From: Escherichia coli 042
GTDB taxonomy: Bacteria; Pseudomonadota; Gammaproteobacteria; Enterobacterales; Enterobacteriaceae
Assembly (NCBI RefSeq): GCF_000027125.1
Contig: NC_017626.1
DNA: 64,000 bases
Direction: 5' to 3' (one strand)
The notes under the pieces are model-generated. The model saw only the letters and a list, made by a program, of their open reading frames with translations, had not been told where the DNA came from and did not search any database. The translations under genes and the position numbers were made by a program. This document shows, one piece after another, positions 1-62,113 of this stretch (within the stretch, counting starts at the first letter, position 1; each line of letters starts with the position of its first letter).

Positions 1-531
1 TACGAATAATAGTTCAACACACAGGTAATCCCATGCGTTAAATTTAACGTTTAAAAAATACTGAATAGCGAAGATCGTACACGTTGCAATAGATGCAATT
101 GCGATCGGAACCGTGAGAGATTTATTGGAATTGAGAGATTGAAAATAGCTATTTGAGAAATTAAAAAATAAAGCAACAGGTAAGGCTAACACAATAGGAA
201 TATAGACATTATATTGATAACCCTGAACAAAAGAATACAAACAAAACAGTAGTAAAACAATTACTCCAGAAAGAATTTTTTGTGCAAACGTTACATTTAA
301 TAGTTTTATTTTATCTGTAGAATCATTATATTTTTTTATAACAAACAGATCCACACCAAAATCAGTAACCACCCGAAGGACTTCGAGAAAACCAACTAAA
401 AAAATGAACTCTCCGCCTACATCTTCTCCTAAGGAACGAGTAATCAGAATTATTGCAAGTGTTTTAAAACCGAAGTAACATATTTTATTAAATAGCGAAA
501 AAATGCCATCGGAGAAAATTTCTTTGATCAT
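1..531 (-). CDS. O-antigen flippase Wzx-like, 5' portion only; gene continues beyond window start
   Basis: Manual translation of minus strand from ATG at 531-529: 177 codons open to the window edge in very AT-rich DNA; product MIKEIFSDGIFSLFNKICYFGFKTLAIILITRSLGEDVGGEFIFLVGFLEVL... is hydrophobic with a Wzx-type N-terminal pattern. Not in the ORF track because the stop lies outside the window. Confidence 0.5.
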   Translation of the reverse strand, partial: MIKEIFSDGIFSLFNKICYFGFKTLAIILITRSLGEDVGGEFIFLVGFLEVLRVVTDFGVDLFVIKKYNDSTDKIKLLNVTFAQKILSGVIVLLLFCLYSFVQGYQYNVYIPIVLALPVALFFNFSNSYFQSLNSNKSLTVPIAIASIATCTIFAIQYFLNVKFNAWDYLCVELLFV

Positions 532-572
532 GTCATGCCTACTGGTGAGATCCTGGTCGAAAAATAAACCAC

Positions 573-1904
573 TTACTGACCATGATAAATTTTATTTTTA
601 ACAAGTAATGGAGATATAAGAACAATCGGCAATGATTTTAGAAGAAAAGCCAATGGCAAAATCAGTTCACCACGAACAGCATAAAAAAATCCAGATATCA
701 TGGAGATGGCAACAAAGTTTATTATTATCCGTTGATTATTTAGTCCCCATTTAATAAAAAGCATCACCCCTGATAAATACAGTAAATAAATAATCACTCC
801 CAAGTTTAGACTCAGCAACGATGACTCTAACAATCCTGAAGATGACAACGCAATACCAGAGGATACATCACCTAAAACAATTATTGAAAAATCTTTTGCG
901 ATTTGTTGATCATCAAGAAAACCAAGACCGCTTAGCGGTAATACTTGTGTGAATACCACAGCGGGATGAAGTTGATCCCATCCTGATGATTGCATATCAA
1001 ACAAATTCTGCATCCCCCCAAGAGTAGAGGATAGCGAATCTAAAACAATGCCAATATAAATCATAAAATCGATTTGGTACCCTTCACGGAAATACGATAC
1101 CATCGAGAAGCATAAAAAACCGGCGATGAGAAATATTGGTTTTGAGAGTTGCTTAAATAAATTTCTTACTCTATACTCATTAGAGTACATATATAGTATA
1201 AAAATACAAATCACTGAAAAGAAAAACTTATTACGTATTCCAATAGCTAAATCAGATGCAAGTAAAACAAATGCAATAACTTTAATGTAGGTCGGTGTTT
1301 TAAAATAAAAAGTGGACAATGACATTACAACTGCAAAACCACTAATAGCACGAATAAAAAATGGAACTTGGGATAGCAATTCTTCGCTTTCAGTATAAAT
1401 TGCTAAATGCCCTTCTCCTGAATTCAATATAAACATAAGATAAATTAATATTTTGTATAATTGACACAGTGCAACAATAGAAAACAAAATATAAAATAAA
1501 CTAGTTAAATATCTTTTTTCTTCTTTTATGACAGTCTCTGTTGTTTGCAAGTAAAGGATGGAATTGATCAACATCCCCCAGATACAAATTATTTCAAACC
1601 CATGATTTGCGTTTTTAAAATAGTAAAGATAAATCGATGGCAAACCAATAATCAAAGAAAAAACGAATGCAAAAAGTAAGGTTAGTGATAAATAGCGAAC
1701 TCTATTAATATAATAATAGAACATCAAAACAACTAATAGCGCTGTAGATATAGTGGCTAAAATATCAATATACACTTGCGATACAAATGTATCCGCCCCT
1801 CCCCACAAGAAACATGAGGATAGTGAAAGAAATACAGAAAAATATATAGCCAGATGTTTAAACTGTATTTTATTGCACAATAATGAATAATATTGCTTAT
1901 GCAT
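573..1904 (-). CDS. polytopic membrane protein, putative O-antigen polymerase (Wzy-like)
   Basis: 443-aa ORF made of many hydrophobic segments and no recognisable enzymatic motif; position inside an O-antigen cluster. Wzy assignment is inferred from context. Confidence 0.45.
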   Translation of the reverse strand: MHKQYYSLLCNKIQFKHLAIYFSVFLSLSSCFLWGGADTFVSQVYIDILATISTALLVVLMFYYYINRVRYLSLTLLFAFVFSLIIGLPSIYLYYFKNANHGFEIICIWGMLINSILYLQTTETVIKEEKRYLTSLFYILFSIVALCQLYKILIYLMFILNSGEGHLAIYTESEELLSQVPFFIRAISGFAVVMSLSTFYFKTPTYIKVIAFVLLASDLAIGIRNKFFFSVICIFILYMYSNEYRVRNLFKQLSKPIFLIAGFLCFSMVSYFREGYQIDFMIYIGIVLDSLSSTLGGMQNLFDMQSSGWDQLHPAVVFTQVLPLSGLGFLDDQQIAKDFSIIVLGDVSSGIALSSSGLLESSLLSLNLGVIIYLLYLSGVMLFIKWGLNNQRIIINFVAISMISGFFYAVRGELILPLAFLLKSLPIVLISPLLVKNKIYHGQ

Positions 1905-2087
1905 AGTAATTAGCTTTACTAGTGAAGTAACTCATTTGAAAAATAAGAAACAGTTAATTTTACAATCTCTTATTCGGGATGAACGCAAATAAAAACACCA
2001 ATGCTAAATATAAACAATTTATAAACAATCTATTACTGAGCGGTTAAATGACAAACCGCTCAAGAGTAGAAAAAAGTTTATATTTTT

Positions 2088-3509
2088 TTACAAAAGAGTA
2101 ACTTTATGCAAAACTTCTAACACTAATTTTTCAGCTTTTATTATGTTATCTGCTTCTGCATAGCATCGCAATTCAGGTGCGTTGCCTGACGGTCGCAAAT
2201 GGATTATTGAACCATCACTTAGTGTCAATCTTAACCCGTCAATTGTATCCACCGATTGTACATGAAGATCGACAAAGCCTATTCTTTCGATAAATTCTTG
2301 AGGATTTTCTTGAGCTGACGCGATAATGCTTTTGCTTTTGCTTGTTGCAAAATTTTGAACTCTATTTGAGTAGGTAAATCGTGGTGGCAACTCCGCCAAG
2401 AGTTTTGAAATAGTCACATTATTTTTTATAGCCAGTGCCAGTACCATTAAAGCAGGCAAAACAGCATCTCTTGTTGGAAGCGCTTTAATCATACCGCTGT
2501 TATAATTTACATCGCTACCTAAAAGATACCCACCGTTAGCCTCAAACCCTGCAACCCTATCAAAACTATTATTCAGAGAATCAAACGCTGAAATGACGTA
2601 TGGTGAACCAATTTTAGTCAGCGTTACATGATTAAACCACCCGCAAGTCTGAATAACCGTATTACAACTTACAGGTACAGCTACCGCTTCAATATTCATT
2701 GCCTTTGAGCAAAATAGTCCTAATATATCACCCCGTAACCAAACGCCATTTTCGTCAGCAACCAAAGGACGATCGCCATCACCATCGGTAGAAAAAATCA
2801 TATCGAGGTCATACTCAGATGACCAGTGTAAAGCTTTTTCTTCATCTTCTTTTGATACTGCTTCAGTATCAATAGGCACAAACTCATCACTTCTACCAAT
2901 ACTTACAACTTCAGCACCAAGCTTACTGAATATTTCTGAATAAAGATCCCGTCCCGCACTTGAATGTTCATAAATCCCGATACGTTTACCTTTAAATATA
3001 TTTGAAAAAATTGAAGTGTTTCTCTCGATATAAGTATCAGCGGCACGCTTTGAACATTGTAATTCTGGCAATACAGTTACATCAGGATACTCTTTTTCAG
3101 CATGTATAATGCTGTTCTCATTTTCTTTTGAAATTTCCCCGTCTGGACGATAGAATTTCAAACCATTTCTATCAAATGGAATATGACTTCCAGTAACCAT
3201 TATTGCAGGAATCCCATCGGCAATCGCTTGATTTGCCAAAGCTGGAGTTGGAATTACACCGTAGTAAATAGGTTTAATACTACATTCCAACAATGCTGCT
3301 GCGCAAGCTTGTGCCATAGCATAGCTGCTTGGGCGATTATCTATTGCGAGCGCAACCTCTTTAAAAGAAAAATCCTTCATCATTACATCGATAAAAGCAT
3401 AAGTGAATGCAGCACACACGTTGGGTGTAAAATCTTTCACTAATCCACGAGCACCACTTGTACCAAATGCAATTCCGCTATTTTTAATTACATCATTGGT
3501 AATATTCAT
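2088..3509 (-). CDS. phosphomannomutase/phosphoglucomutase-family sugar phosphate mutase (manB-like)
   Basis: ORF-track protein has a [11 protein letters not shown] active-site serine loop and DGDGDR metal-binding loop typical of alpha-D-phosphohexomutases. Start trimmed to the ATG at 3509 (MNITNDV...), which avoids overlap with manC. Confidence 0.7.
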
Positions 3510-3513
3510 ATAA

Positions 3514-4929
3514 TTATTTATCCTCAACACGACCATATTTATCACTTAGGCGCACAATATCATCATCACCTAGATATACACCCGACTGAATCTCAATTAC
3601 TTCTAATGGTATCTTTCCTGGATTTTCCAAGGTATGAACTGTGCCAATTGGTATGAAAGTTGACTCATTTTCAGTGACGAAAAAAGTGCGTTCGCCGCAA
3701 GTCACCTTTGCAGTACCAGCGACAACCACCCAATGCTCAGCTCGATGATGATGCATTTGTGTTGAGAGACATTCACCAGGCTTAACGGTAATACGCTTTA
3801 CCTGATAACGGTCGCCACGTTCTACAGAATCATAACGTCCCCAAGGACGATAGACTTCGCGATGGGATATATGTTCGCTACGTTTTTGCTTTTTAAGAAT
3901 TTCGACAATCTTCTTTATGTCTTGTACGTTGTCTTGCTGTGCTACCAGGAGCGCATCTTTAGTTTGAACTATAATAAGGTTATTAACTCCTACAGTGCTG
4001 ATCAGTGAACCTTCAGAGTAAATGTAGTTGTTCCTGCTGTCATAGTTAATTACATCGCCATGCGATACGTTTTCATGTTCATCTTTCTCTGATATTTCCC
4101 AAAGTGATGTCCATGAACCGATGTCACTCCAGTCAGCATCAAGTGGAATAACTACACAATCCTGAGTTTTTTCCATTACCGCATAATCAATTGACTCATC
4201 GGGACATTCTGCAAAGACATCAGAATTTAATCTGATAAAATCTAGATCAGTACTAGCACTGGAAAGCGACTCTTTACACGCTGCTAAAATATCAGGGCGA
4301 AATTTTTTCAATTCATCTAAATATACGCTCGCCTTGAACATGAACATACCACTATTCCACAAATAGCATTTTTGTTCGAGATAATTTTTAGCCGTTTCTA
4401 AATCAGGTTTTTCGACGAAAGAATTTACTTTAAATACAGAGTTTTTAACTTGTTCGCCCTTTTTAATATAGCCATACCCAGTTTCAGGTTTGGTCGGGAC
4501 GATGCCAAAAGTCACTAACTTATTGTCAACGGACTCTTGTTCTGCAGCTAAAACAGCTGCATGGAAGGCTTCAATATCCTGAATAGCATGGTCAGCAGCA
4601 AGAACCAGCATATGATGATCGCCATGGAGTTCTAGAGACTTTAGAGCAGCCAGCGCAACGGCGGGCGCAGTATTTCTACCTACAGGTTCTAGAATAATCT
4701 GGAAGTCATCCACACCGAACTGTCGCAATTGTTCAGCAACAATAAATCTATGCTCATTATTGCTAACAATGACAGGAGGCAAACAATTTAATCCATCAAG
4801 TCTCTTCAACGTTTCCTGGAGCAAACTATTTTCATTAATCAATGATAAAAATTGTTTCGGGTATAACGAACGCGAAAGAGGCCATAAGCGAGTACCAGAA
4901 CCACCGGCCATAATAATTGGGATAATCAT
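3514..4929 (-). CDS. manC: mannose-1-phosphate guanylyltransferase / mannose-6-phosphate isomerase (type II)
   Basis: 471 aa; N-terminus [27 protein letters not shown] is the nucleotidyltransferase signature; a cupin-like C-terminus; clear paralogue of cpsB at 17171-18607. Confidence 0.85.
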
Positions 4930-4930
4930 T

Positions 4931-6133
4931 TTATTTAACAGACTCCTTAATTTTCTGGATATATGGGCTCAATTTAGCTTCCCATGAAAAATTCTCACCG
5001 ATAAACTTTTTCGCAACTAATGCTGTTTCGGTATATTTATCCAGATTTGTTATAAAATAATTTAATACACGTAAATATTCTTCTTTTGTATTGGCAACAT
5101 AAATCTCCTTACCCTCCTCTGCTCCCAAGCCTTCAAAGCCTACAGTAGAAGAGATACAAGGTAATCCCAACGCCATATATTCAAGTACCTTATTTTGGAT
5201 ACCTGCCCCTAATCTAATAGGACATACACCAATATGCCCATCAGCTGCTGCATAAGTTATGCTATCAACTTCACCTGTGACAACAACGCCAGGCTGGCTT
5301 TCTAACCAACTCTTATCTTTATCTGTAATACGTCCGATGACCTTAAATTCAAAATTACCATGCTTGTTAAGAAATGGTAAAACTTCCTTGGTGAACCATC
5401 TCACACCATCCATATTTTGCAAAGAATATAAATTACCTATAAATACAAGGGTTATCTTTTTATCTTTAGCTATTTTTCGTTCTGAAAAAGGTAAGCTAAC
5501 GGCATCAACACCATTTCCACAGACTAATACATTATTCGGACGGTCTGGATATAAATAATCGGAGTCAACCTGTGATACCAAAGTAGTCAAGCTGAACTTG
5601 TTATTTATAGTTCGCTCATATCGTTCGAGTCTTTTTTGTTCAAAAGAATATACAAATGTTTTTAAACTCAATAAAGATGCTTTTTCCTTTACTCGTTTAT
5701 AATTAAGTGAAATGGCATCGGTCATCTCTAAAAAATTTATATCTTTATTCTCTTTCACATAATCACCAACCCTTATCAAATGTGAAAGAGTTGCAGAATG
5801 TTCAGGTAATAACTGCTTAAGTTTATCTTCAAATTCTTTAGATTTATAATACCCAATCTGTAGGGGAGTATTTGAAAACAAAGAGAATATGACATTTAAA
5901 ATAGATTTTTTCTTTGAAAGATATACTCTGTGAACACTACTAAAAACTTCACGATCATATTCATAGTTGAGCTCTTCGCGTTTATCACACAGACTCAGCA
6001 ACGTAAGATCATAATGCTTAGACAGTTCTTTACAGATCTTATAGATACGTAATCGATCCCCACCAATGACAGGAAACGGGAACCGTGGAGTCAAAACTAA
6101 TATCTGTTTCTTATTTATATCAATATTACTCAT
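4931..6133 (-). CDS. glycosyltransferase, GT4 family (GT-B fold)
   Basis: 400 aa; C-terminal half has the GT4 pattern (GNG..., E-x7-E-like [10 protein letters not shown]); ATG start; located in the O-antigen cluster. Confidence 0.7.
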
Positions 6134-7130
6134 AAATCTTTCTCAATTCATTTTCAAATAAAATATGTTCATGCAGAGCTTTCCTTTCGACACTGGGTGA
6201 ATTATCTACCAAGTATGAATAGACTTCATAATACTCAGAATAGTAAGTATAAAAGAAAATATTCGAATCCTTTTGTTCGCGGAAAGCAGAGATCCGTGTG
6301 CATATAACATTTTTGCATGTGAGTTTTGCTTCAGCTAAAGTCCTTCCATACCCCTCGGCAAGCGAATGAGCCCAAACAATTTTAGAATTACAATATAGTT
6401 TGACGACTTCCTCTAAAGAAACAAAACCAATAATTTCAATTTCTTTATCTGTATCCCGCCCATCAATTAAGTCGTTAACCTTGCTAATACCATTCCCACA
6501 ACCTAATATTTTTAATGGTATTCTTTCTTCCCTTGGGATTGAAAAATAATAGTCCAGAGCTGTGCCTAGATCCTTATTATCCCCTAAACCTGAAACTAGA
6601 AGTAAATATCCAAGATCTTTTATTTCGGTAACATTAGCAATTTTCTCAAATGAGAAAAATGGATTTGGGAGCAGGATAGATTCTATACACTTAAATAGCG
6701 ATATTCTCTTAGATACTCGCTGAGTGCTTTGAGAAATAAATATTACTTTCTTTGCTAAAAAAGATGAAAAATAAATACAGACTTTCACATAAATGGCAGC
6801 AAGATTTCGTTTATTTTTCTTAAGACTAATGAAGTCATGAATTATAACAATTGCCTTACCTAATAACAAGTCAATGATGGAACTACTATTATAGGGATAT
6901 ATATTATACTTAGTTCTATAAAATATACCCATAATTGGTATTAAAAGCTGCTCTACTATTATAAAAAGAACATTCAGAAACCATGAAGGCAGCTTATGGA
7001 ATGCTTTTGGACATGCAACATAAATAACCTGAACATTATTGTCTCTTAACTTTTGCACAAGTTCAGAAGTATAGATCGGTATTCCTCTTTTCAAAATACC
7101 ATCAAAAAAATTATTTACAATTACTTTCAT
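6126..7130 (-). CDS. glycosyltransferase, GT4-like
   Basis: ORF-track frame 6126-7163 begins with TTG; the internal ATG at 7130 (MKVIVNNFF...) has an AAGAG Shine-Dalgarno ~8 nt upstream. C-terminal LAEGYGRTLAEA motif resembles GT4 enzymes. Confidence 0.6.
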   Translation of the reverse strand: MKVIVNNFFDGILKRGIPIYTSELVQKLRDNNVQVIYVACPKAFHKLPSWFLNVLFIIVEQLLIPIMGIFYRTKYNIYPYNSSSIIDLLLGKAIVIIHDFISLKKNKRNLAAIYVKVCIYFSSFLAKKVIFISQSTQRVSKRISLFKCIESILLPNPFFSFEKIANVTEIKDLGYLLLVSGLGDNKDLGTALDYYFSIPREERIPLKILGCGNGISKVNDLIDGRDTDKEIEIIGFVSLEEVVKLYCNSKIVWAHSLAEGYGRTLAEAKLTCKNVICTRISAFREQKDSNIFFYTYYSEYYEVYSYLVDNSPSVERKALHEHILFENELRKIYE

Positions 7131-7229
7131 GTTTGCTCTTAAGTTTATTTCAGATATTATCAATAGTATAAAAATAGTCAGGATTATTATTTCTTATTTT
7201 GAGAACGCATCATATAAACACAATCTTAC

Positions 7230-7268
7230 CACGCTACCGCCCCTGGCTTAACAGCTACCAGTGCACTA
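7230..7268 (-). promoter_or_regulatory. JUMPstart element with ops (GGCGGTAGCGTG), RfaH-dependent antitermination site in the O-antigen operon leader
   Basis: Minus-strand sequence TAGTGCACTGGTAGCTGTTAAGCCAGGGGCGGTAGCGTG matches the 39-bp JUMPstart consensus and ends with the ops element. Confidence 0.85.
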
Positions 7269-7523
7269 GCAAAATGCCAAAGATGTACCCCGCCCCGCTA
7301 GCTATCGCAAAGCTATCTTAAATTCAAACGCCAATTGTCTTACCAAATGCTGTCAGAAACAAGGATAAATCCAACAAAAAATAGATTAAACTTAGTAGGT
7401 TAACTCGTTGTTATTCTTTGTTTTAAAAAGAAAAACGACAGTAACATTCCTTTGTTTAAAGCATAGACGCCGGGATGTTAGCTGCCGCTATTTATCTAAA
7501 TTATTGTTACATTGGCTTGGGAT

Positions 7524-8417
7524 CTATTCCCCGAGCAACTTCTCAATGCTCTTACGGAACTTTGGCCCTTCCTTCAGGTTGCGCAGTCCATACTTCACAA
7601 ACGCCTGCATATAGCCCATTTTTTTACCGCAGTCGTAGCTGTCGCCGGTCATCAGCATGGCATCAACGGACTGTTTTTTCGCCAGTTCGGCAATAGCATC
7701 AGTCAGCTGAATACGCCCCCATGCACCAGGTTGCGTGCGTTCAAGTTCCGGCCAAATATCGGCAGAAAGCACATAGCGACCAACGGCCATGATGTCTGAG
7801 TCCAGCGTCTGCGGCTGATCCGGTTTTTCGATAAATTCGACGATGCGGCTGACTTTACCTTCACGATCCAGTGGTTCTTTGGTCTGAATGACGGAGTATT
7901 CAGAGAGGTCACCCGGCATACGTTTTGCCAGCACCTGGCTGCGGCCCGTTTCGTTGAAGCGCGCAATCATGGCAGCAAGGTTATAGCGTAGCGGATCGGC
8001 GCTGGCGTCATCGATAACAACGTCTGGCAGTACCACGACAAATGGGTTGTCACCAATGGCAGGTCGTGCACATAAAATGGAGTGGCCCAAACCTAAAGGT
8101 TCGCCCTGACGCACGTTCATAATGGTCACGCCCGGCGGACAGATGGACTGCACTTCCGCCAGTAGTTGACGCTTCACGCGCTGTTCAAGGAGAGATTCTA
8201 ATTCATAAGAGGTGTCGAAGTGGTTTTCGACCGCGTTCTTGGACGCGTGAGTTACCAGGAGGATTTCTTTGATCCCTGCAGCCACAATCTCGTCAACAAT
8301 GTACTGAATCATTGGCTTGTCGACGATCGGTAGCATCTCTTTGGGAATCGCCTTAGTGGCAGGCAACATATGCATCCCAAGACCCGCTACAGGAATAACT
8401 GCTTTTAAATTCGTCAT
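7524..8417 (-). CDS. galF: UTP-glucose-1-phosphate uridylyltransferase paralogue GalF
   Basis: Protein [30 protein letters not shown]... matches GalF as I recall it; start trimmed from the ORF-track MDEI extension to the ATG at 8417. Confidence 0.9.
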
Positions 8418-8591: not shown

Positions 8592-9986
8592 CTACTCTCT
8601 CCGTTCTGGCAATCTAAAGTTAATCTTTTCCACATTAACAATATGGTGATTAACCCTGTCGATATCGACGGAGCTTTGCCCTCTTTCATTCACCGCATGA
8701 ACATTTGCAAGAGACAGCAGTGTTTCTTTTTTCGCCATAAAGACGCCGCGAACGTCTTTGCGCATGTCGAAGTTCATGCTCAATGCGGGTCCAACAGAGG
8801 ATTCCTGCATCACTTTGATATTTCGTATAAAAAGATGTTGCGGTTTGTTGTGTAACTCCAACGAGGCACGCTTCATCTCAATGTTAGTCAGTGCAACAAA
8901 GGAGACAGCATTCCCGGCAGAGATTTGGATACCGCGCAATTTGTAAGCAAGGTGGGTGTTATCCAGCTGAATATTATTCACTCGGAAATTTTGCGGTATC
9001 GAGAGATATTTGCCTTTAATTACCCCATAACCGATTAACATCCCGGCGCTATTAATCATTTCAATATTATCAATCACGAAATTGTCACAACCGTAAATAG
9101 CGACCGTGGCGTTATCAATACCTGCTTTCTTACTGAAATCCGGCGTGATATTGCGGGCTTTGATATTACGAATAACAAAATGTTTACCATTTTCAACATG
9201 GATCAGTTGTCGACAATCCGATCCCGTGATATTCGCCACGACAAAGTTTTTCACTGCCTGGTCTTCCGGGTAGTTATTATCATAAGTACTCCCCGCAAGG
9301 CCTATGCCGATTCCCCAGTTGATTTTGCCGTTGGTACAGTTGATGCGCTCGATGATGTGGTCGGAGATCAAAATATCACTGTCGTTAATCGCCACGTTCC
9401 ATTCAATGGCGTCCCCCTGTAAGTCGCTGAACTTACAATTGGTGATGTTGGCACCGATAATCTGGTTATGAAATCCCTGACGTAAGATGGCGTAATTAGC
9501 GTGGCTGACAGTGAGGTTATCGATGGTCAGGTTGCGCATGACCCGTTTGTTTTTGCCGCCGATATAAATCTGCGTTACTGGGCCAAAGCCGCTCATCGCC
9601 AGCCCTTTGATGGTGCAGTCAGAGCCGCGCACATCCAGGGTGATGTTATGCATACTGCCGCCCTCCTCCCCTGTCACCTGGCTGCCGTCTTGTAAGACAA
9701 AACGCCCTCTGCCGTTGCCGCGCAGGCTTCCAAGGATGTGTAACGTTTTGCCAGGAGGAATGAAGATGCCGGTGTTGATATTTTCACAAACCAATCCGGC
9801 AGGCACGACGACCGTTTGCCCTTCGCTGAAGGCTTGTTTAAATGAAGCAATCCAGTCGTGTGGGTTGTAGTCGTTAATGTTAACGCTTTGCCGGGCAGGA
9901 AGTGCTCGGGCGAAAGGCGTATGAAGGAAGGCAAGCGCCGAGCTTACCGTCAGGAAAGTGCGTCGGGAGAGTTTTTTAAATGGCAT
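8592..9986 (-). CDS. wcaM: colanic acid biosynthesis protein WcaM
   Basis: 464 aa, same length as K-12 WcaM; signal-peptide-like N-terminus; last gene of the wca operon, adjacent to galF. Confidence 0.88.
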
Positions 9987-9996
9987 ACGTTCTCCT

Positions 9997-11217
9997 CTAT
10001 AAAGCTTGCAGCAAGCTGGCGAGTTCTCGATTAATCACCTGCTGGTTAAAATCATGTTCGACTTTTTCGCGCGCACGTTTGATAACCGGAGCCAGTTCGT
10101 CGGTGTCCAGTTGGCTAAACGCCGCCAGTCGTTGCGCCAGTGCACGGGCATCGTTCTCAGGCACCAGCCAGCCGGATTTGTCAGCCTCCACCAGTTCCGG
10201 TATTCCGCTATGCAGAGTAGAAACCACCGGAATGCCGACCGCCATCGCTTCCATTAGCGCCACCGGAATGCCTTCCATATCACCATCCGCACCTGTAACC
10301 GATGGCAACAGGAAGACATCCGCGTCGTCGAGCATCGCTTTCACTTCGTGGCTCGGTTTAAAGCCCGGCATCTCCACCACATCTTCCAGTTGATATTGTT
10401 CGATGAGGGTGCGCAGGCGTCGTTCCCACGGGCCAATGCCGAGGATGCGATAGCGAAATGCCACGCCCTGCTCTTTCAACTGACGGCAGGATTCGATCGC
10501 CACATGCAGGCCTTTTTTCTCGGTTAAGCGTGCGACGGAGATGATTTCCAGCGGTATTGCGGGCGCTTTCACCGGACGCGGGCTAAAACGCGTCATGTCC
10601 ACGCCCATGCGCGATACGGCAATTTTTTCCCTCGGGCAGCCCATTTTTTGCAGCCTTCCGGCCCAGAGATCGCTGATCGGTAGCATCAAATCGCCACGGC
10701 GAAACAGTTGCTGATATTCGGGGGTGTAGTGGTTGAGCACTTCCCGACTGGAGATATCAATGCCGTGGAAGATAGTAGCGATTTTGCCGCGAATGACACC
10801 CAGTTCCCGTAGTTTTGCTGCGGTTACCCCCGCCGGGCCAAAATGAGCGATGAACACATCGGCATAAAATGGTGTTGCGACCTGGCCGCAAATGGCAGAC
10901 AAAATCAGGTTCCGCGACTCGGCACCATAGCGTTTGAGGTTGAGCGCCTGCCAGGTATTTTTGCGATGAATGCCGCGTAAGGTCTGGCTGGCGCGGTGGC
11001 GCAGCTTCGCCACTTTGCCCGTAGGTTCGTCCTGTAACCAGCGGGTTCTGGCGGCAAGGTTGTATTTCGTCCATGCCGCGTGGGTGTTTTGTGTGTCGCC
11101 TTTTTGCAGCGCGACAATCTCCACCTCAAATCCCATATCAATAAACGCAGTGATTTGGTTGAGAACGAAGGTTTCCGACGACAGCGGAAATTTCAGTAAA
11201 AAGAAGCCGACCTTCAT
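9997..11217 (-). CDS. wcaL: colanic acid glycosyltransferase WcaL
   Basis: 406 aa GT4-type protein in conserved wca order. Confidence 0.88.
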
Positions 11218-12494
11218 TTCACCTCCCCGATGCGTTCAAGCACAGATTGCACCATCTGCATTCCCGTCTGACGTTCGCGACTGACGGCTTCGTTAAGTCG
11301 CGCGTTCAGCGCCGGAAGTTGGCCTAAGGTATCCGCAACCATCGCTTGCAGGCTGCCGTCCAGTAAATGACGGATATCAATTGCCATCTCTGGCAGCCCC
11401 AGCTGCTGCATAATCCCGGCGGATTTATGTTCATAGTTGATGGCAATCGCCGGAGTGGCAAAGTTCATCGAGATAATGGCTGAGTGCAGGCGCGTACCGA
11501 CGGTGAGTTCACTGGCACCGAGAATTTTGCCCATTTCCAGATCATTGAGTTCATCCATCACTACGTGGTAACGGGCAGGATCGCAGATGTGCTGGCGCAG
11601 ATTGAGCGCCACCATGCGGTCGTCTTTGTTATAGCTGTCGATGCCCGTACAGGTGGAGAGCGCAATGACCTGATAGCCTTCGTCGAGAATGCGATTGACC
11701 ACCCCGGCAAAGGCTTTTTCATACGCTTGTTGGGTGGTGCCGAGACGTTTGTCGAACGGTGCCAGTTCGCGCAGGGTAATTGCCACCGTTTTCTGTTGTG
11801 CGGCAACGTCCAGCCAGTGTTGAACGGCATAGCTGGCGGTGAAGTCTTCTGTGTGGTGATCGACCAGCCACGCGGTATCGACGCCATGTTCAACTTTTGC
11901 AGTGGAGATATTGCTGCGTTTCATCAAATCAAGGCTGACCGATTCGCGCAGGATCAGCGCATCGCAGTGACCAAAAACGTAGTTCGCCAGTTGGTTAAAT
12001 TGCTCATCCTGGAAGGGGCCGACGCTGTGACCAATCATAAACAGCGGCTTTTTCGCCATAAATGTGCAAAGCGCATGTTCAAACTGTGGCACGCCGTAGA
12101 GATCGACAAAAAACGATCCGCCGACCTGAATAATGGCGTCGTAACCTGACAGCAGGCGCACGAAGTCAGTGAATCCCTGGGCGATGGCGATATTACGCAA
12201 CTTGCCAGTGTCGGTGACGCGTGAGAGCAATACCTGATGCTGGTAGCGGCGACGGAGGACTTTTTTAACGCGCCCGACAACGCCCGCCACGCTGTTGTGT
12301 TGTTTCATTTGCAGGAACAGTGGATCGCCCATTACCGGGCGGTTGAGCAGCCAGGAAGAACTGACCGGATAGCGGCTCATCACGTCCACTTCGGCATGTG
12401 GATTGAGGATGTTGATGGCATCAAGTAAGCCGCGCAGGATGGCGCTGTCGCCACGATTGCCGCAAGTGTGGTTGCCCAGAATAAGTAATTTCAT
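11214..12494 (-). CDS. wcaK: colanic acid pyruvyl transferase WcaK
   Basis: 426 aa; 4-nt overlap with wcaL (translational coupling); conserved position. Confidence 0.88.
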   Translation of the reverse strand: MKLLILGNHTCGNRGDSAILRGLLDAINILNPHAEVDVMSRYPVSSSWLLNRPVMGDPLFLQMKQHNSVAGVVGRVKKVLRRRYQHQVLLSRVTDTGKLRNIAIAQGFTDFVRLLSGYDAIIQVGGSFFVDLYGVPQFEHALCTFMAKKPLFMIGHSVGPFQDEQFNQLANYVFGHCDALILRESVSLDLMKRSNISTAKVEHGVDTAWLVDHHTEDFTASYAVQHWLDVAAQQKTVAITLRELAPFDKRLGTTQQAYEKAFAGVVNRILDEGYQVIALSTCTGIDSYNKDDRMVALNLRQHICDPARYHVVMDELNDLEMGKILGASELTVGTRLHSAIISMNFATPAIAINYEHKSAGIMQQLGLPEMAIDIRHLLDGSLQAMVADTLGQLPALNARLNEAVSRERQTGMQMVQSVLERIGEVK

Positions 12495-12555
12495 TTTTTC
12501 CTCATAAATTTGATGCCAGGTGAAGCTGCGTTTGTTTTGTTCGTTGCCGCTTTTT

Positions 12556-12745
12556 GCCTGATGCGACGCTGGCGCGTCTTATCAGGCCTACAAGACCCGA
12601 GCACAGAACCGTAGGCCGGATAAGGCGTTCACGCCGCATCCGGCATTCAGTGCCTGATGCGACGCTGACGCGTCTTATCAGGCCTACAGGTCCCGAGCAC
12701 AGAACCGTAGGACGGATAAGGCGTTTTACGCCGCATCCGGCAACC
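12556..12745. repeat. REP/BIME cluster (several palindromic units) between wzxC and wcaK
   Basis: Repeated GCCTGATGCGACGCTGGCGCGTCTTATCAGGCCTAC and CCGGATAAGGCGT...CGCCGCATCCGGCA units in alternating orientation. Confidence 0.85.
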
Positions 12746-12769
12746 ATTGCCGGAACCGAAAACAACAAC

Positions 12770-14248
12770 TCACCCCGCCCGTAAAAGCATTTTCATTTTT
12801 TCGCTGCGACAAAACTGACGCTTCACTTCCACCACCAGCGGATGGCGCGACAGCACAATCATCACTACAAACGCCAGCACGCCTGCGGCTATTTGCACCG
12901 CCAGCAGCATCCCCAGCGCCAGTTGCCCTTTCAGCACAATGCCCAGCGCATAACTGACCACCAGCGTCGGCAGCGAGAGATAAAACGGCAGCCATAAACT
13001 CAGGATGTACTGGCGATAACTGGAACCGAGCACCGGTTTAATCATCACGAAGTAACTCAGAATGGTGTTGATAATCTGCACCAGCAGGAAGCCGAGCGTG
13101 ACGCCGATTGCGCCCGCCATTTGCCCACCTATAACAATCGCCGGAATAAACAGAAAGGTTTTGAATACGTTGAATTTAAAGCTGATATCGACCCGCGCTT
13201 TCGCCATCAGCAGCGAACCAATCGGGTTCCCCACTGAGCGCAGCAGCCCCACCACACACAGTAAATGCAGCACCGGAATAATGCTGTTCCACTTCTCACC
13301 AAAGACCAGCGGTACAAAGTTATTCGACACCACCATCAGCCCCAGCAGCGCCGGAAAGTTGATAATCCCCACCACCGACAGCAGCTTGTAGAAGTTGACG
13401 CGCAGCTTTTCGGTGTCGTCCTGAATTTTGGCAAATGCCGGAAACAACACGCGGGTGATGATCGGGTTCAGCTTCATCGGCGGCACAACGGCCACGTTGT
13501 ACGCCAGGTTGTATCCCCCTGCCACGCCCGCGCCAAGAATACGCGCCAGCACCAGCGTTGAAAGGTTGGTGTTGAGATAGTTGATGATGCTGTCCGCCGT
13601 CAGCCAGGCACCAAAACGTAAGTTCGGTGCTACCGACGCCAGCGAGAAGTGCAGACCGGGACGATAAATTTTGCGGCCAAAGTAGCCAAACAGCAGCGTT
13701 CTTACCGTACTATTGACCAGATAACCGAGGATCGCGGTCATCGCCAGCGGCCAGAAATGGGCGCTAACCACAGTAAAAGTGAAGCCCGCCAGCACCGCGC
13801 TGGTTTCGATCATGCCGATTTTGTTGAACTCCAGCTCCTTCTGCATCAACGCGCGGAACTGTTGCCCGTGGGGGATCACCACAAACGCCAGCGACAATGT
13901 TTTAATCAACGGTGCCAGGTCCGGGTTATTCAGCACGTCGCCGATGAGATCACTCAACAAAAACACCGCCACGCACACCACGATCCCCAGCCCGACGTTC
14001 AGCCAGTACAGCGTGGTGAGTTCAAGGTGGCTGATTTCTTTTCGCTGAATAATCGAGTTAGCGATACCGAAGTCAGAAAGCGTATCTGCCAGCGCGATAA
14101 TCACCAGCGACACAGTCAGCAGGCCGAACTGGTGGTTGTCGATAATCCGCGCCAGCACGGTCATCTGTACCAGCCCGAGGCCGATGATGATCACCGTGGC
14201 AATCGCCGACCACTTCGCGCCGCTGATGGTTTTTTCACGTAAGCTCAT
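12770..14248 (-). CDS. wzxC: colanic acid repeat-unit flippase WzxC
   Basis: 492 aa polytopic membrane protein; conserved position. Confidence 0.9.
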   Translation of the reverse strand: MSLREKTISGAKWSAIATVIIIGLGLVQMTVLARIIDNHQFGLLTVSLVIIALADTLSDFGIANSIIQRKEISHLELTTLYWLNVGLGIVVCVAVFLLSDLIGDVLNNPDLAPLIKTLSLAFVVIPHGQQFRALMQKELEFNKIGMIETSAVLAGFTFTVVSAHFWPLAMTAILGYLVNSTVRTLLFGYFGRKIYRPGLHFSLASVAPNLRFGAWLTADSIINYLNTNLSTLVLARILGAGVAGGYNLAYNVAVVPPMKLNPIITRVLFPAFAKIQDDTEKLRVNFYKLLSVVGIINFPALLGLMVVSNNFVPLVFGEKWNSIIPVLHLLCVVGLLRSVGNPIGSLLMAKARVDISFKFNVFKTFLFIPAIVIGGQMAGAIGVTLGFLLVQIINTILSYFVMIKPVLGSSYRQYILSLWLPFYLSLPTLVVSYALGIVLKGQLALGMLLAVQIAAGVLAFVVMIVLSRHPLVVEVKRQFCRSEKMKMLLRAG

Positions 14249-17069: not shown

Positions 17070-17170
17070 ATCGTTACCCTTTTTCAGGCAATAGTTGGCC
17101 CTGACCGAAACGGCCAATTTTGTTTTTGTCGTTATTTACCGGAGAATTAATCCGGTTGATTATTCAACTG

Positions 17171-18607
17171 CTACACCCGTCCGTAGCGATCCGCGAAGCG
17201 CACCACATCATCCTCTTCGAGGTAAGACCCGGAGCGCACTTCAATTAAATCGAGTGGAATTTTCCCCGGGTTTTCCAGGCAGTGCGTCGCCCCCAGCGGA
17301 ATATAAATCGACTCGTTTTCACCAAGCAGTTTGATATCACCGTCAATAGTGACTTTTGCCGTTCCTGCGACAACCACCCAGTGTTCCGCGCGGTGATGGT
17401 GCATCTGTACCGACAAACCCTCGCCCGGTTTCACGGTGATGCGTTTCACCTGGTAGCGGTCGCCCGCGTCGATAGAGTCATATTTGCCCCACGGGCGATA
17501 CACTTCGCGATGCACCCGATGCTCATGGCGACCGTCGGCTTTGATCTGCTCGACCACTTTTTTCACATCCTGCACCGCGTTACGGTCGGCAATCAGCACC
17601 GCATCTTTGGTCTGCACCACTACCAGATCTTTCACCCCGACGGTGGTGACCAGGCCAGATTCGGCGTACACATAGCTGTTTTCAGTTTTGTGATTAATCA
17701 CATCGCCGTGGCAAACGTTGCCCTCGGCGGTGTGGGCGCTGATCTCCCATAATGAAGACCAGGAACCGACATCGCTCCAGCCCGCATCCATCGGCACCAC
17801 AACGGCATCTGCCGTACGTTCCATGACCGCGTAATCCACAGACTCTTCCGGGCAGGCGAGAAACGCTTCTTCATCCACACGAATAAAATCGAGATCCGGA
17901 TCGACGGCGCTCATCGCTTTTTCACAGGCGTCGAGAATATCCGGGCGATATTTTTTCAGCTCTTCTAGATAGCGTCCGGCGCGGAACAGGAACATACCGC
18001 TGTTCCAGTAATATTCGCCGCTTGCCACATAGGCCTGAGCGGTTTCCAGATTCGGTTTTTCGACAAACTGCGCCACTTCAAAGGCCACCGTATCCTGCTC
18101 ACCCGCCGACACTTCACCGCGACGAATATAGCCATATCCGGTTTCAGGTAGATCCGGCACAATGCCGAAGGTCACCAGCTTGCCTGCTTCGGCATACGGC
18201 ATGGCGTTACGCACGGCGGCACGGAACGCGTCTTCGTCGGCAATCACATGATCCGCTGCCAGCACCAGCATTAATGGGTCGCTCTCCGGGCTATGACGTT
18301 TTGCCGCCAGCGCCGCCAGCGCAATGGCAGGTGCAGTGTTACGCCCTGCCGGTTCGAGAATAATGTTCTCGGTGAGTTTGTTCAGTTGACGCAGCTGTTC
18401 CGCGACAATAAAGCGGTGCTGCTCATTGCAAATCACCACCGGGCTTTCGCACTCCACGCCGTTCAGGCGGCAGATGGTGGTTTGCAGCATGGTGAGATCG
18501 CCTTTCAGGCATAAAAACTGCTTGGGGTAAAGTACGCGGGAAAGCGGCCATAAGCGGCTCCCGGAGCCACCTGCCATCACAACTGGATAGAGTTTCGACT
18601 GCGCCAT
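17171..18607 (-). CDS. cpsB: mannose-1-phosphate guanylyltransferase
   Basis: 478 aa; [14 protein letters not shown] nucleotidyltransferase motif. Confidence 0.9.
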
Positions 18608-31545: not shown

Positions 31546-31584
31546 CACGCTACCGCCCCTGGCTTTTTAGCTACCAATACACTG
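31546..31584 (-). promoter_or_regulatory. JUMPstart element with ops (GGCGGTAGCGTG) in the wza leader
   Basis: Minus-strand sequence CAGTGTATTGGTAGCTAAAAAGCCAGGGGCGGTAGCGTG; shares the ...AGCCAGGGGCGGTAGCGTG core with the element at 7230-7268. Confidence 0.85.
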
Positions 31585-47811: not shown

Positions 47812-47992
47812 AAGAAATCCTTTCTTAGAGAATTATTGAGGTCCGGTATCATACCGATTGCAATAATGAAATAAGAGCAAACGAAGAAACTTTCAGAATT
47901 AGGCCCGGCGGCGCAGAAAATTTTGCTATTCGCCTCGCAAGAACGAAGAGCCGTCGATTGACACTAAGGGCGGAGTGACATAATTTCAGGAG

Positions 47993-48134
47993 TGAGGGTT
48001 AGGGAGAGGTTTCCCCCTCCCCCTGGTGTTCTTAGTAAGCCTGGAAGCTAATCACTAAGAGTATCACCAGTATGATGACGTGCTTCATCATAACCCTTTC
48101 CTTATTAAAAGCCCTCTTCTCCGGGAGAGGGTTT
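47993..48134 (+). ncRNA. sibA: Sib antisense sRNA (type I antitoxin), unit 1 (SibA-like); coordinates approximate
   Basis: Sigma70-like promoter TTGACA (47958-47963), 17-nt spacer, TAATTT; fully antisense to ibs unit 1; ends at a stem-loop CCCTCT...AGAGGG followed by T residues. Confidence 0.7.
48032..48091 (-). CDS. ibsA: Ibs type I toxin peptide, 19 aa (MMKHVIILVILLVISFQAY)
   Basis: Manual translation of the minus strand; hydrophobic Ibs-family peptide encoded opposite the Sib RNA. Confidence 0.8.
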   Translation of the reverse strand: MMKHVIILVILLVISFQAY

Positions 48135-48327
48135 CCCGTTTCAGCGTCCCGCTGAAATCGTCGGCTTACCTCCTTTCGCCCTGAATGCAGTCTATCGCTA
48201 ACGCGTGAACAAAATAGTTTCCTCTGTGATTATTGCGTAACGACTCGCAAAGAATATTTGCTGGCAGGATCGCAGACTGCAAAGCCTGCAGATTGACAAT
48301 CTTATCGTGAAGGCATACTTTCAGGAG

Positions 48328-48465
48328 TGAGGGTAGAGCGGGGTTTCCCCCGCCCTGGTAGTCTTAGTATGCTGGGTAGCTAATCACTAAGAGCACCACG
48401 ATGATGAGTATCTTCATCATGACCCTTTCCTTATTTAAGGCCCCTTCCTCGGGAGGGGCTTTCCC
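48328..48465 (+). ncRNA. sibB: Sib antisense sRNA, unit 2 (SibB-like); coordinates approximate
   Basis: Promoter TTGACA (48293-48298), 17-nt spacer, TACTTT; terminator stem GCCCCT...AGGGGC plus T-run. Confidence 0.7.
48364..48420 (-). CDS. ibsB: Ibs type I toxin peptide, 18 aa (MMKILIIVVLLVISYPAY)
   Basis: Manual translation of the minus strand, antisense to Sib unit 2. Confidence 0.75.
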   Translation of the reverse strand: MMKILIIVVLLVISYPAY

Positions 48466-48655
48466 GTTTCAGCGTCCCGCTGAAATCGTCGGCTTACCTC
48501 CTTTCGCCCTGAATGCAGTCTATCGCTGACTTGCGGATAAAATAGTTTCCAGTGTGATTATTGCGTAACGTCTCGCAAAGAATATTTGCTGGCAGGATCG
48601 CAGACTGCAAAGCCTGCAGATTGACAATCTTATCGTGAAGGCATACTTTCAGGAG

Positions 48656-48793
48656 TGAGGGTAGAGCGGGGTTTCCCCCGCCCTGGTAGTCTTAGTAAGC
48701 TGGCCAGCTAATGACTAAGAGCACCACGATGATGAGTAGCTTCATCATGACCCTTTCCTTATTTATGGCCCCTTCCTCGGGAGGGGCTTTCCC
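48656..48793 (+). ncRNA. Sib antisense sRNA, unit 3 (additional SibB-like copy); coordinates approximate
   Basis: Near-identical to unit 2 with a 328-bp period; promoter and terminator are conserved. Confidence 0.65.
48692..48748 (-). CDS. Ibs type I toxin peptide, 18 aa (MMKLLIIVVLLVISWPAY)
   Basis: Manual translation; differs from the unit 2 peptide at two positions. Confidence 0.75.
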   Translation of the reverse strand: MMKLLIIVVLLVISWPAY

Positions 48794-53396: not shown

Positions 53397-56300
53397 GTGA
53401 AGTTTTTTGCCCTCTTCATTTACCGCCCGGTGGCGACGATTTTACTGTCGGTCGCCATTACCCTGTGCGGCATACTGGGCTTCCGTATGCTGCCGGTCGC
53501 CCCACTGCCGCAGGTCGATTTTCCGGTGATTATGGTCAGCGCCTCGCTGCCCGGTGCATCGCCGGAGACAATGGCGTCTTCCGTTGCCACACCGCTGGAG
53601 CGCTCACTTGGGCGCATTGCCGGGGTTAGTGAAATGACCTCCAGTAGTTCGCTCGGCAGCACGCGCATTATTTTGCAGTTTGATTTTGATCGGGATATTA
53701 ACGGCGCAGCGCGCGATGTGCAGGCGGCGATCAACGCCGCGCAAAGTCTGCTACCCAGCGGGATGCCCAGCCGTCCGACCTACCGCAAAGCGAACCCGTC
53801 GGATGCGCCAATTATGATCCTCACGCTGACATCCGATACTTATTCGCAGGGTGAACTGTACGATTTTGCCTCGACGCAGCTGGCTCCGACGATTTCGCAA
53901 ATCGACGGCGTCGGTGATGTCGATGTTGGCGGCAGCTCACTGCCCGCCGTGCGCGTCGGGCTGAATCCGCAGGCGCTGTTTAATCAGGGCGTCTCGCTGG
54001 ACGATGTGCGCACTGCCATCAGCAATGCCAACGTGCGTAAACCGCAGGGGGCGCTGGAAGATGGCACTCACCGCTGGCAGATCCAGACTAACGATGAACT
54101 GAAAACCGCTGCTGAATATCAGCCGCTGATTATTCATTACAACAACGGCGGCGCGGTTCGTCTGGGCGATGTGGCGACGGTGACCGACTCAGTGCAGGAT
54201 GTGCGCAACGCTGGGATGACCAACGCCAAACCGGCTATTTTGCTGATGATCCGCAAGCTGCCGGAAGCCAATATTATCCAGACGGTTGACAGCATCCGGA
54301 CAAAATTACCGGAGTTGCAGGAGACCATTCCGGCGGCGATTGATCTGCAAATTGCCCAGGATCGCTCCCCCACCATTCGCGCCTCGCTGGAAGAAGTCGA
54401 GCAAACGCTGATTATCTCGGTGGCGCTGGTGATTCTGGTGGTCTTTTTATTCCTGCGCTCGGGTCGCGCCACTATTATTCCCGCCGTTGCAGTGCCGGTT
54501 TCGCTGATTGGTACGTTTGCGGCGATGTACCTGTGCGGTTTCAGTCTCAATAATCTTTCGTTAATGGCGCTCACCATCGCTACTGGTTTCGTGGTGGATG
54601 ACGCGATCGTGGTGCTGGAAAACATTGCACGTCATCTGGAAGCGGGGATGAAACCGCTACAGGCCGCGCTGCAAGGTACCAGTGAAGTCGGATTTACGGT
54701 GCTATCGATGAGTCTGTCACTGGTGGCGGTGTTCCTGCCGCTACTGTTGATGGGCGGATTGCCGGGCCGCCTGTTACGCGAATTTGCCGTGACGCTTTCT
54801 GTCGCCATTGGGATTTCGTTGCTGGTTTCCCTGACGCTAACGCCAATGATGTGTGGCTGGATGCTGAAAGCCAGCAAGCCGCGCGAGCAAAAGCGTCTGC
54901 GTGGTTTTGGTCGCATGTTGGTAGCCCTGCAACAAAGCTACGGCAAGTCACTGAAATGGGTGCTTAATCATACCCGTCTGGTGGGCGTGGTGCTGCTTGG
55001 CACCATTGCTTTGAATATCTGGCTGTATATCTCGATCCCGAAAACCTTCTTCCCGGAGCAGGACACCGGCGTGTTGATGGGCGGGATACAGGCGGATCAG
55101 AGTATTTCGTTTCAGGCGATGCGCGGTAAGTTGCAGGATTTCATGAAAATTATCCGTGACGATCCGGCAGTGGATAATGTCACCGGATTTACCGGCGGTT
55201 CGCGGGTGAACAGCGGGATGATGTTTATCACCCTCAAGCCACGCGGCGAACGCAGCGAAACGGCGCAGCAAATTATCGACCGTCTGCGCGTGAAGCTGGC
55301 GAAAGAACCGGGGGCTAATCTGTTCCTGATGGCGGTACAGGATATTCGCGTTGGCGGACGTCAGTCGAACGCCAGCTACCAGTACACGTTGTTATCCGAC
55401 GACCTGGCGGCACTGCGCGAATGGGAGCCGAAAATCCGCAAAAAACTGGCGACGTTGCCGGAACTGGCGGACGTGAACTCCGATCAGCAGGATAACGGCG
55501 CGGAGATGAATCTGGTTTACGACCGCGACACCATGGCACGGCTGGGAATCGACGTACAGGCCGCCAACAGTCTATTAAATAACGCCTTCGGTCAGCGGCA
55601 AATCTCGACCATTTACCAGCCGATGAACCAGTATAAAGTGGTGATGGAAGTGGATCCGCGCTATACCCAGGACATCAGTGCGCTGGAAAAAATGTTCGTT
55701 ATCAATAACGAAGGAAAAGCGATCCCGCTGTCGTATTTCGCTAAATGGCAACCGGCGAATGCTCCGCTGTCGGTGAATCATCAAGGATTATCGGCAGCCT
55801 CGACCATCTCGTTCAACCTGCCGACCGGAAAATCGCTCTCGGACGCCAGTGCGGCGATCGATCGCGCAATGACCCAGCTTGGTGTGCCTTCGACGGTGCG
55901 CGGCAGTTTTGCCGGCACGGCGCAGGTGTTCCAGGAGACGATGAACTCACAGGTGATCCTGATTATCGCCGCCATCGCCACGGTGTATATCGTGCTGGGT
56001 ATCCTTTACGAGAGTTACGTACATCCGCTGACGATTCTCTCCACCCTGCCCTCGGCGGGCGTTGGAGCGCTGTTGGCGCTGGAGCTGTTCAATGCCCCGT
56101 TCAGCCTAATCGCCCTGATAGGGATCATGCTATTAATCGGCATCGTAAAGAAAAACGCCATCATGATGGTCGATTTTGCGCTTGAAGCCCAACGGCACGG
56201 TAACCTGACGCCGCAGGAAGCTATTTTCCAGGCCTGTCTGCTGCGTTTTCGCCCGATTATGATGACTACCCTGGCGGCGCTGTTTGGTGCGCTGCCGCTG

Positions 56301-62079: not shown

Positions 62080-62113
62080 TACAGCTGCATTTATTAAGGT
62101 TATCATCCGTTTC

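Follow-up and report, generated by a model that had tools for sequence, protein, structure and literature searches.

Identity and gene content of the region next to galF

Which surface polysaccharide is encoded by the AT-rich DNA at the start of the window (the whole stretch of DNA that was analyzed, 64,000 nucleotides), is its gene set a new one, and which serogroup does it specify? We conclude that positions 1 to 7523 are almost certainly a six-gene Wzx/Wzy-dependent O-antigen operon of the O77 group, lying between galF and gnd. The features of the region are as follows.

1..531, minus strand: wzx, O-unit flippase, first 177 of 411 codons; open frame from the ATG at 531
573..1904, minus strand: wzy, O-antigen polymerase, 443 aa; identical to WP_000549530.1
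2088..3509, minus strand: manB, phosphomannomutase, 473 aa; PGM_PMM domains I to IV all present; RefSeq phosphomannomutase; GC content of 38.2%
3514..4929, minus strand: manC, mannose-1-phosphate guanylyltransferase/mannose-6-phosphate isomerase, 471 aa; TIGR01479
4931..6133, minus strand: GT4-type glycosyltransferase (GT), 400 aa, presumed mannosyltransferase; GT-B fold with a GT4-type C-terminal domain; Pfam Glyco_trans_1_4, E = 5e-19
6126..7130, minus strand: GT, 334 aa, presumed mannosyltransferase; Pfam Glycos_transf_1, E = 1e-10; RefSeq "glycosyltransferase"
7131..7523, minus strand: galF-to-GT intergenic region; GC content of 35.6%; composition boundary
7230..7268, minus strand: JUMPstart element; Rfam RF01707, 59.2 bits (gathering threshold, 35), E = 7e-12
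7524..8417, minus strand: galF, conserved 5' flank; TIGR01105, 685.8 bits (cut-off, 659); RefSeq galF

The GC content was 34.9% over positions 1 to 7523 and 52.4% over positions 7524 to 64000. An earlier note on this DNA had described an abrupt switch in composition, and a sliding-window calculation located it near 7250 to 7500: 500-nt windows stood at 29 to 41% from position 1 to approximately 7250 and at 52 to 54% from 7500. The by-eye estimate of around 30% GC in that note agrees with the values for wzx, wzy, and the GT genes (31 to 34%) but not with those for manB and manC (38 to 40%). At third codon positions, the GC content was 25 to 32% in the six cluster genes, compared with 55 to 62% in galF, wcaM, and wcaL.

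Reading from the JUMPstart along the minus strand, the gene order is GT, GT4, manC, manB, wzy, and wzx. This is the order previously given, and the cluster indeed has no rml genes and is not the rfb cluster of K-12. The description of an O-antigen cluster that follows galF and a JUMPstart also held. The window covers the locus from galF through five of the cluster genes and about half of the sixth. The cluster had been said to continue beyond it, which is true in that wzx runs off the end but overstated, as no more than the last 705 nt of wzx are missing before gnd (as seen in related loci). The full order galF-GT-GT4-manC-manB-wzy-wzx-gnd-ugd-wzzB was found in loci L001 and L002 and in L015 to L018, same-lineage loci (0 or 1 mismatch over 20 kb) that served as the source for the rest of wzx and for gnd.

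The earlier assignment of 1 to 531 to Wzx and of 573 to 1904 to Wzy was upheld by the RefSeq names and by the Pfam match of wzx. The part of Wzx inside the window matched Polysacc_synt (PF01943; MOP) at 35.3 bits (cut-off, 28.2), and the complete gene, taken from the same-lineage locus L015, encodes approximately 12 hydrophobic segments. RefSeq names the product "O17/O44/O73/O77/O106 family O-antigen flippase." WP_000549530.1 is correspondingly named "O17/O44/O73/O77/O106 family O-antigen polymerase" in 100%-matching RefSeq genomes, and an index of public assemblies lists the exact Wzy protein in 10,476 blocks. A Pfam search of Wzy gave no match, and its hit to the repeat-unit polymerase model TIGR04370 (E = 1.9e-7) fell below the cut-off. 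The protein is called Wzy on two grounds: it is identical to the curated typing allele, and its topology fits (approximately 10 to 11 hydrophobic segments and, at about residues 240 to 355, a long loop). With a Polysacc_synt flippase, a multispanning polymerase, and no wzm or wzt, the predicted route of synthesis is Wzx/Wzy dependent.

ManC matched TIGR01479 (GMP_PMI) at 755 bits (cut-off, 373) as well as the Pfam families NTP_transferase and MannoseP_isomer. The manB start at 3509 is better placed than the GTG at 3545 that gives the longest open reading frame. For the 334-aa GT, the ATG at 7130 used by RefSeq, which is preceded by a Shine-Dalgarno-like sequence (AAGAG), was likewise preferred over the longest-frame TTG at 7163.

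Transcription signals

The JUMPstart and its ops element are an RfaH-dependent antitermination signal for O-antigen operons. The 39-nt JUMPstart contains an exact match to ops (GGCGGTAG) at 7234 to 7241. A scan for promoter and terminator consensus sequences returned counts equal to the shuffled expectation, with no convincing minus-strand sigma-70 site in the galF-GT spacer. We infer that the operon promoter lies in this spacer (7131 to 7523). From what is established about RfaH, ops, and JUMPstart, transcription would begin there, and RfaH recruited at 7230 to 7268 would carry it through the operon. A separate Rfam hit, to the archaeal snoRNA sR14 at 814 to 862 (22 bits; threshold, 38), was rejected as a chance match.

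The cluster belongs to the O77 group

Positions 1 to 7523 differed from ECA64, CB6837, and the O17 reference strain K12a by 2 mismatches in 7523 nt (99.97% identity), and wzx and wzy of these matched loci are named "O17/O44/O73/O77/O106 family" by RefSeq. The two genes match a known O-antigen cluster. At least 80% of the region is carried by 92 of 5426 complete E. coli genomes. In the literature, the GTs of this set, termed Gp9, are 100% identical in O17, O44, O73, and O77 (Iguchi 2015; PMC4379981). The group corresponds to DebRoy set 3 (PMC4732683), and O77g is its name elsewhere (PMC13188871). Cluster DNA is >99% identical among the group, which shares a common Man3-GlcNAc backbone; the structure ->6)Man(a1-2)Man(a1-2)Man(b1-3)GlcNAc(a1-> is taken from published chemistry, in which one GT is held to transfer two Man residues and Glc side branches are added by gtr (PMC7685785).

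The cluster studied here shares with the known one its six genes, their order, its position between galF and gnd, and an identical Wzy, and with six genes the O77-group cluster is minimal. None of the results contradicts its place in the group. It differs from the other O77-group loci compared by two nonsynonymous single-nucleotide polymorphisms (SNPs). The first (nt 111) causes F141V in Wzx, leaving 176 of the 177 N-terminal residues identical to the O17 reference; the second (nt 4041) causes N297D, the single substitution in ManC relative to that reference. Both are absent from ECA64, K12a, L006 to L008, L010, and L011 and present in the same-lineage locus L015. These two substitutions may matter for function in the O44/042 lineage.

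Serogroup within the group

The cluster encodes the common backbone only, and a strain's serogroup is determined by prophage-borne gtr genes for glucosylation, located at another site in the genome. Since these prophage genes must be examined too, genoserotyping from the O-antigen locus alone does not resolve the serogroup. No gtr genes were found within the 64-kb window.

Across 37 kb of flanking DNA, three proteins (WcaM, AsmA, and YegI) were exact matches to CBG35114.1, CBG35137.1, CBG35143.1, and D3GZC8_ECO44, and the spacing of the CBG accessions (23 and 29) agrees with the gene order in the window. We take the CBG and ECO44 identifiers to be entries of E. coli O44:H18 strain 042. The cluster content agrees with the O44 locus of this enteroaggregative strain (EAEC), Ec042-2270-99, which the 042 genome paper assigned to the O44 O antigen; the same paper describes gtrAB and the glucosyltransferase Ec042-0853 on prophage 042p1 (PMC2808357). 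Strain 042 is O44:H18 by serum agglutination (PMC7198487). Because the flank proteins exactly match entries of a strain with gtrAB and a glucosyltransferase on 042p1, O44 is, by this indirect route, the most likely serogroup. The earlier note had left the serogroup undetermined; the choice has now been narrowed to five and probably to O44.

A different gtr set elsewhere, or none, would make the strain express O17, O73, O77, or O106 from the same cluster. We regard this as unlikely, at a probability that is still appreciable: the cluster is shared by all five serogroups and the window is devoid of gtr, but three flank proteins exactly match the 042 (O44:H18) entries, and the SNPs at 111 and 4041, present in L015, do not occur in K12a or in six other O77-group loci.

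Rejected alternatives: a new cluster or another type of polysaccharide

The note had also called the gene set unusual, and some features would suit a cluster that is new or has not been typed: a three-mannose backbone is served by just two GT genes, manCB are the only sugar-pathway genes, and Wzy has no Pfam match. We nevertheless give this reading almost no weight. It is refuted by the match to K12a, the gene set being that of the repeatedly published and RefSeq-named O17/O44/O73/O77/O106 cluster at 99.97% identity, and the oddity of the two GTs has already been discussed (PMC7685785). Among related systems, Salmonella enterica O:6,14 (group H) has, according to the literature, the same four-sugar backbone (PMC4732683). 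Sequence identity to this cluster, which is from another genus, is expected to be much lower.

A group 1 K-antigen capsule or an ABC transporter-dependent polymannan of the O8/O9 type can be dismissed with near certainty: the position between galF and gnd is common to group 1 capsule clusters, and the mannose-only chemistry recalls O8/O9, but wzx and wzy are present, and neither wzm, wzt, nor wbdD nor any ABC transporter frame was found in 1 to 7523 (open reading frames, annotation, and Pfam). The E. coli O8/O9/O9a polymannan clusters do resemble the present one in having manCB and GT4-type mannosyltransferases, with one enzyme adding more than one mannose (PMC7685785); however, they have the ABC transporter genes wzm/wzt and no wzx/wzy, whereas the present cluster is Wzx/Wzy dependent. 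A capsule is further contradicted by the separate group 2 capsule locus of strain 042 (PMC2808357). Upstream of the O-antigen locus here there is also an entire colanic acid cluster, which includes a wza-wzb-wzc set of its own and argues against a capsule as well. Group 1 capsule strains are not known to have such a cluster upstream.

Exchange of the cluster by recombination in the flanks

Compared with other O77-group strains, the window shares a tract with 4 mismatches in approximately 10.9 kb (0.04%), while the flanks differ by about 2%. On one side the tract reaches at least 1409 nt outside the window, past position 1; on the other it runs through galF into wcaM and up to 9506. Mismatches are dense from 9507, and identity is 93% in 9501 to 10000.

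8896..9507, no strand: recombination junction inside wcaM; end of the near-identical O77-group tract

The exchanged tract therefore does not stop at the composition boundary near 7523 but reaches approximately 9507. Some other O77-group carriers differ in this respect, with the genomes L006 and L011 diverging from 8598. The contrast between 0.04% divergence inside the tract and about 2% in the flanks is a clear signature of lateral exchange, in agreement with the earlier suggestion. These comparisons make it very probable that homologous recombination in the flanking DNA has carried the cluster from one E. coli lineage to another and that in this genome the galF-side junction lies in wcaM near 9507.

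The flanks had best identities of 97.4 to 98.6% among the 5426 complete E. coli genomes, a set without NC_017626.1 itself, compared with approximately 100% for the cluster. Two complete chromosomes, LR134238 and LR134246, showed no base mismatch to the window and 3 to 5 indels. A scan of GTDB species representatives with a 26-mer from dcd returned three loci, the sole Escherichia among them being MOD1-EC7003 (95.1% identical). We had considered a cryptic Escherichia clade with a recently imported cluster; this was rejected because the flank proteins exactly match E. coli 042 entries and because NC_017626.1 lies outside the 5426-genome set. The 2% gap in the flanks is ordinary interlineage divergence in a recombination-prone region.

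Glycosyltransferases and the proposed repeat-unit pathway

Both GTs match the Glycos_transf_1 clan in Pfam. The 334-aa enzyme contains an E-x7-E motif (AEGYGRTLAEA), while the first Glu of this motif is absent from the translation of the 400-aa enzyme. The latter is named "glycosyltransferase family 4 protein" by RefSeq and aligned with TIGR03087 over its full length (E = 9e-62), yet below the model cut-off. A PDB sequence search with the two GTs found no solved relative of either.

The pathway can be sketched from the gene content and the published structure. ManB and ManC would provide GDP-mannose, and WecA, encoded outside the cluster, would transfer GlcNAc-1-P onto undecaprenyl phosphate. 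The two cluster GTs would then add three mannoses, one linked beta1-3 to GlcNAc and two alpha1-2, with one enzyme adding two of the three as proposed in the literature. Wzx would flip the tetrasaccharide, and Wzy would polymerize it via an alpha-GlcNAc-(1->6)-Man linkage. The chain length would be set by WzzB, and WaaL would ligate the chain to lipid A-core.

A beta-linkage is not expected from a retaining GT4 enzyme, and the O77-group backbone needs one. We tentatively suggest, as a possibility that falls well short of an even chance, that one GT, although GT4-like in sequence, is an inverting beta-1,3-mannosyltransferase and that the 334-aa GT adds both alpha-1,2-linked Man residues. The missing first Glu of E-x7-E makes the 400-aa GT a weak candidate for the inverting enzyme. 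Similarity in fold would not distinguish inverting from retaining chemistry. Outside the primary description of the group by Wang et al. (2007, Microbiology) and the supplementary material of a 2020 review, a search of the literature found no biochemical demonstration of how the two GTs divide this labor. If the suggestion is true, the system would be a compact one, with two enzymes for three linkages.

The O17/O44/O73/O77/O106 cluster is already known, published, and widely distributed, and no new biology follows from the present sequence. [quoted passage not shown] The value of the analysis is in annotation: the region can be labeled an O77-group O-antigen locus whose lineage is most likely that of O44:H18 EAEC 042.

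Gene content and composition

GC content was 29 to 41% from position 1 to ~7250 and 52 to 54% from 7500 on (sliding-window composition), giving 34.9% overall in 1-7523 versus 52.4% in the remaining window. Third-codon-position GC was 25 to 32% in the six cluster genes and 55 to 62% in galF, wcaM, and wcaL. Every long open reading frame (ORF) in the region lies on the minus strand. The composition switch and gene coordinates reported in the earlier note are thus real; its estimate of about 30% GC fits wzx, wzy, and the glycosyltransferase (GT) genes (31 to 34%) but not manB and manC (38 to 40%). The features are as follows.

7524-8417, minus: galF (TIGR01105, 686 bits)
7131-7523, minus: 393-nt spacer with JUMPstart at 7230-7268 (Rfam RF01707, 59.2 bits, E = 7e-12)
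6126-7130, minus: glycosyltransferase, 334 aa (Glycos_transf_1)
4931-6133, minus: glycosyltransferase (GT4-type), 400 aa (Glyco_trans_1_4; RefSeq "GT family 4")
3514-4929, minus: manC, 471 aa (TIGR01479, 755 bits)
2088-3509, minus: manB, 473 aa (four PGM_PMM domains)
573-1904, minus: wzy, 443 aa (subthreshold TIGR04370, hydropathy, RefSeq naming in matching genomes)
1-531, minus: 5' part of wzx, 177 codons (Polysacc_synt above cutoff)

The JUMPstart of the galF-GT spacer contains an exact match to ops, GGCGGTAG. For the 334-aa GT (ATG at 7130, preceded by AAGAG) and manB (3509), the RefSeq starts have stronger support than those of the longest ORFs. Wzy had no match in Pfam and scored below threshold against the repeat-unit polymerase model TIGR04370 (E = 1.9e-7); its hydropathy profile shows ~10 to 11 hydrophobic segments and a long loop. 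The full locus in matching records reads galF-GT-GT4-manC-manB-wzy-wzx-gnd-ugd-wzzB-his, so the cluster consists of six genes only, and of these the window lacks no more than the last 705 nt of wzx.

Identity to the O77-group cluster

By megablast, at least 80% of 1-7523 was present in 92 of 5426 complete E. coli genomes. The closest (ECA64, CB6837, and the O17 reference strain K12a) differ from it at two positions only, 111 and 4041, both nonsynonymous (Wzx F141V and ManC N297D). Matching RefSeq records name an "O17/O44/O73/O77/O106 family O-antigen polymerase" and "flippase," and in public assemblies the exact Wzy protein is listed in 10,476 index blocks. Gene content, JUMPstart, and identity to a typed cluster bear out the earlier claim of an O-antigen island. 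The cluster is real, but it is common, thoroughly described, and already known.

The clusters of the five serogroups are >99% identical to each other and share the backbone ->6)-Man-(a1->2)-Man-(a1->2)-Man-(b1->3)-GlcNAc-(a1->; O77 is unbranched, the remaining four carry Glc side branches from prophage gtr genes, and two mannose transfers by a single GT have been proposed (PMC7685785). Iguchi et al. designated the group Gp9, with GTs 100% identical in O17, O44, O73, and O77 (PMC4379981). DebRoy et al. designated it set 3 and noted that Salmonella O:6,14 has the same backbone (PMC4732683). Recent outbreak papers use the name O77g and report that the five serogroups are inseparable by genoserotyping (PMC13188871).

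Two other carriers have an IS1 within manC (L009, 7041-7738, GCA_964040175.1; L012, 7330-8027, CP163651.1). The colanic acid paralogue cpsB may compensate, or these may be rough strains.

Lineage and likely serogroup

Identity to the best complete genome was only 97.4 to 98.6% in the flanks (7524-32000, 39500-64000, and 56000-60000), which first suggested a divergent host. Exact protein matches settled the matter: WcaM, AsmA, and YegI are identical to GenBank CBG35114.1, CBG35137.1, and CBG35143.1 and UniProt D3GZC8_ECO44, and their accessions are spaced by 23 and 29, matching the intervening gene number in the window. We take the CBG and ECO44 identifiers to be those of E. coli O44:H18 strain 042 (FN554766). 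The searched genome collection held no RefSeq record of this strain, hence the lack of a close flank match.

Three public loci of the same lineage (L015, L016, and L018) differ from the window by 0 to 1 mismatch over 20 kb and supplied what the window lacks of wzx, along with the beginning of gnd. L016 and L018 (LR134238.1 and LR134246.1, complete chromosomes) have zero base mismatches and 3 to 5 single-base indels over 20 kb, which break wcaK, wzy, GT, manC, and wzx into fragments. These indels are probably long-read homopolymer errors and not real pseudogenes.

No gtr gene was found within the 64-kb window. The 042 genome paper assigns the O44 O antigen to Ec042-2270-99 and describes gtrAB plus the glucosyltransferase gene Ec042-0853 in prophage 042p1 at 877 to 918 kb (PMC2808357), and the strain agglutinates as O44:H18 (PMC7198487). 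Given these assignments, the serogroup is likely O44.

Proposed biosynthesis

The steps below draw on established knowledge and the published structure, our own observations being the genes, the JUMPstart, and the match to the typed cluster. RfaH-dependent read-through would start from the spacer, ManB and ManC would supply GDP-Man, and WecA would initiate. The two GTs would carry out three mannosyl transfers, after which Wzx would flip the unit and Wzy would polymerize it through alpha-GlcNAc-(1->6)-Man. WzzB and WaaL would act downstream, and Gtr proteins would glucosylate in the periplasm. The 334-aa GT carries the canonical E-x7-E motif that typifies retaining GT4 enzymes; in the 400-aa GT, the first Glu of this motif is absent. 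This motif difference leads us to lean weakly toward the 334-aa GT for the alpha1-2 linkages; sequence comparison found no solved relatives of either GT.

Other elements in the window

The colanic acid operon is headed by a second JUMPstart/ops, upstream of wza (31546-31584, minus strand; RF01707, 57.3 bits), as expected for that operon. Between yegL and mdtA, three tandem Sib antitoxin RNA genes (47958-48763, plus strand; RF00113, 140 to 150 bits; ~330-nt repeats) form an Ibs/Sib type I toxin-antitoxin array. In ECA64, four Ibs copies are annotated at the corresponding position, so copy number is strain variable. Three further elements exceeded the Rfam gathering score.

17074-17123, minus: algC RNA motif, between cpsB and cpsG
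12614-12684, plus: naRNA4 (REP-derived element), wcaK-wzxC spacer
62112-62197, plus: CyaR sRNA

A 91-nt indel relative to ECA64 (~17139-17172) adjoins the algC motif. At mdtC-mdtD-baeS-baeR (56000-60000), 4241 of 5423 E. coli genomes are 95 to 99% identical to the window and 1182 are 90 to 95% identical; these two classes indicate deeply divergent alleles within the species, ~50 kb from the O-antigen locus.

Lateral exchange

The window, extended with L015, was compared with K12a and ECA64 at every base. Only 4 mismatches occur in a tract that begins at least 1409 nt before position 1 of the window (the remaining wzx plus 552 nt of gnd) and runs to 9506. Mismatches are dense from 9507, with 93 to 96% identity to 11000 (the 5' part of wcaM and wcaL); a second identical stretch follows at 11001-12800 (100% across wcaL/wcaK), and past 12800 identity is ~97 to 98%. 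This mosaic at 9507-12800 suggests that the colanic acid cluster adjoining the O-antigen locus contains several independent recombination tracts. In two other O77-group genomes (L006 and L011), divergence begins at 8598. The exchanged tract thus extends past the AT-rich block. It takes in galF together with the 3' portion of wcaM, and its junctions differ between lineages, the pattern expected for O-antigen replacement via flank recombination.
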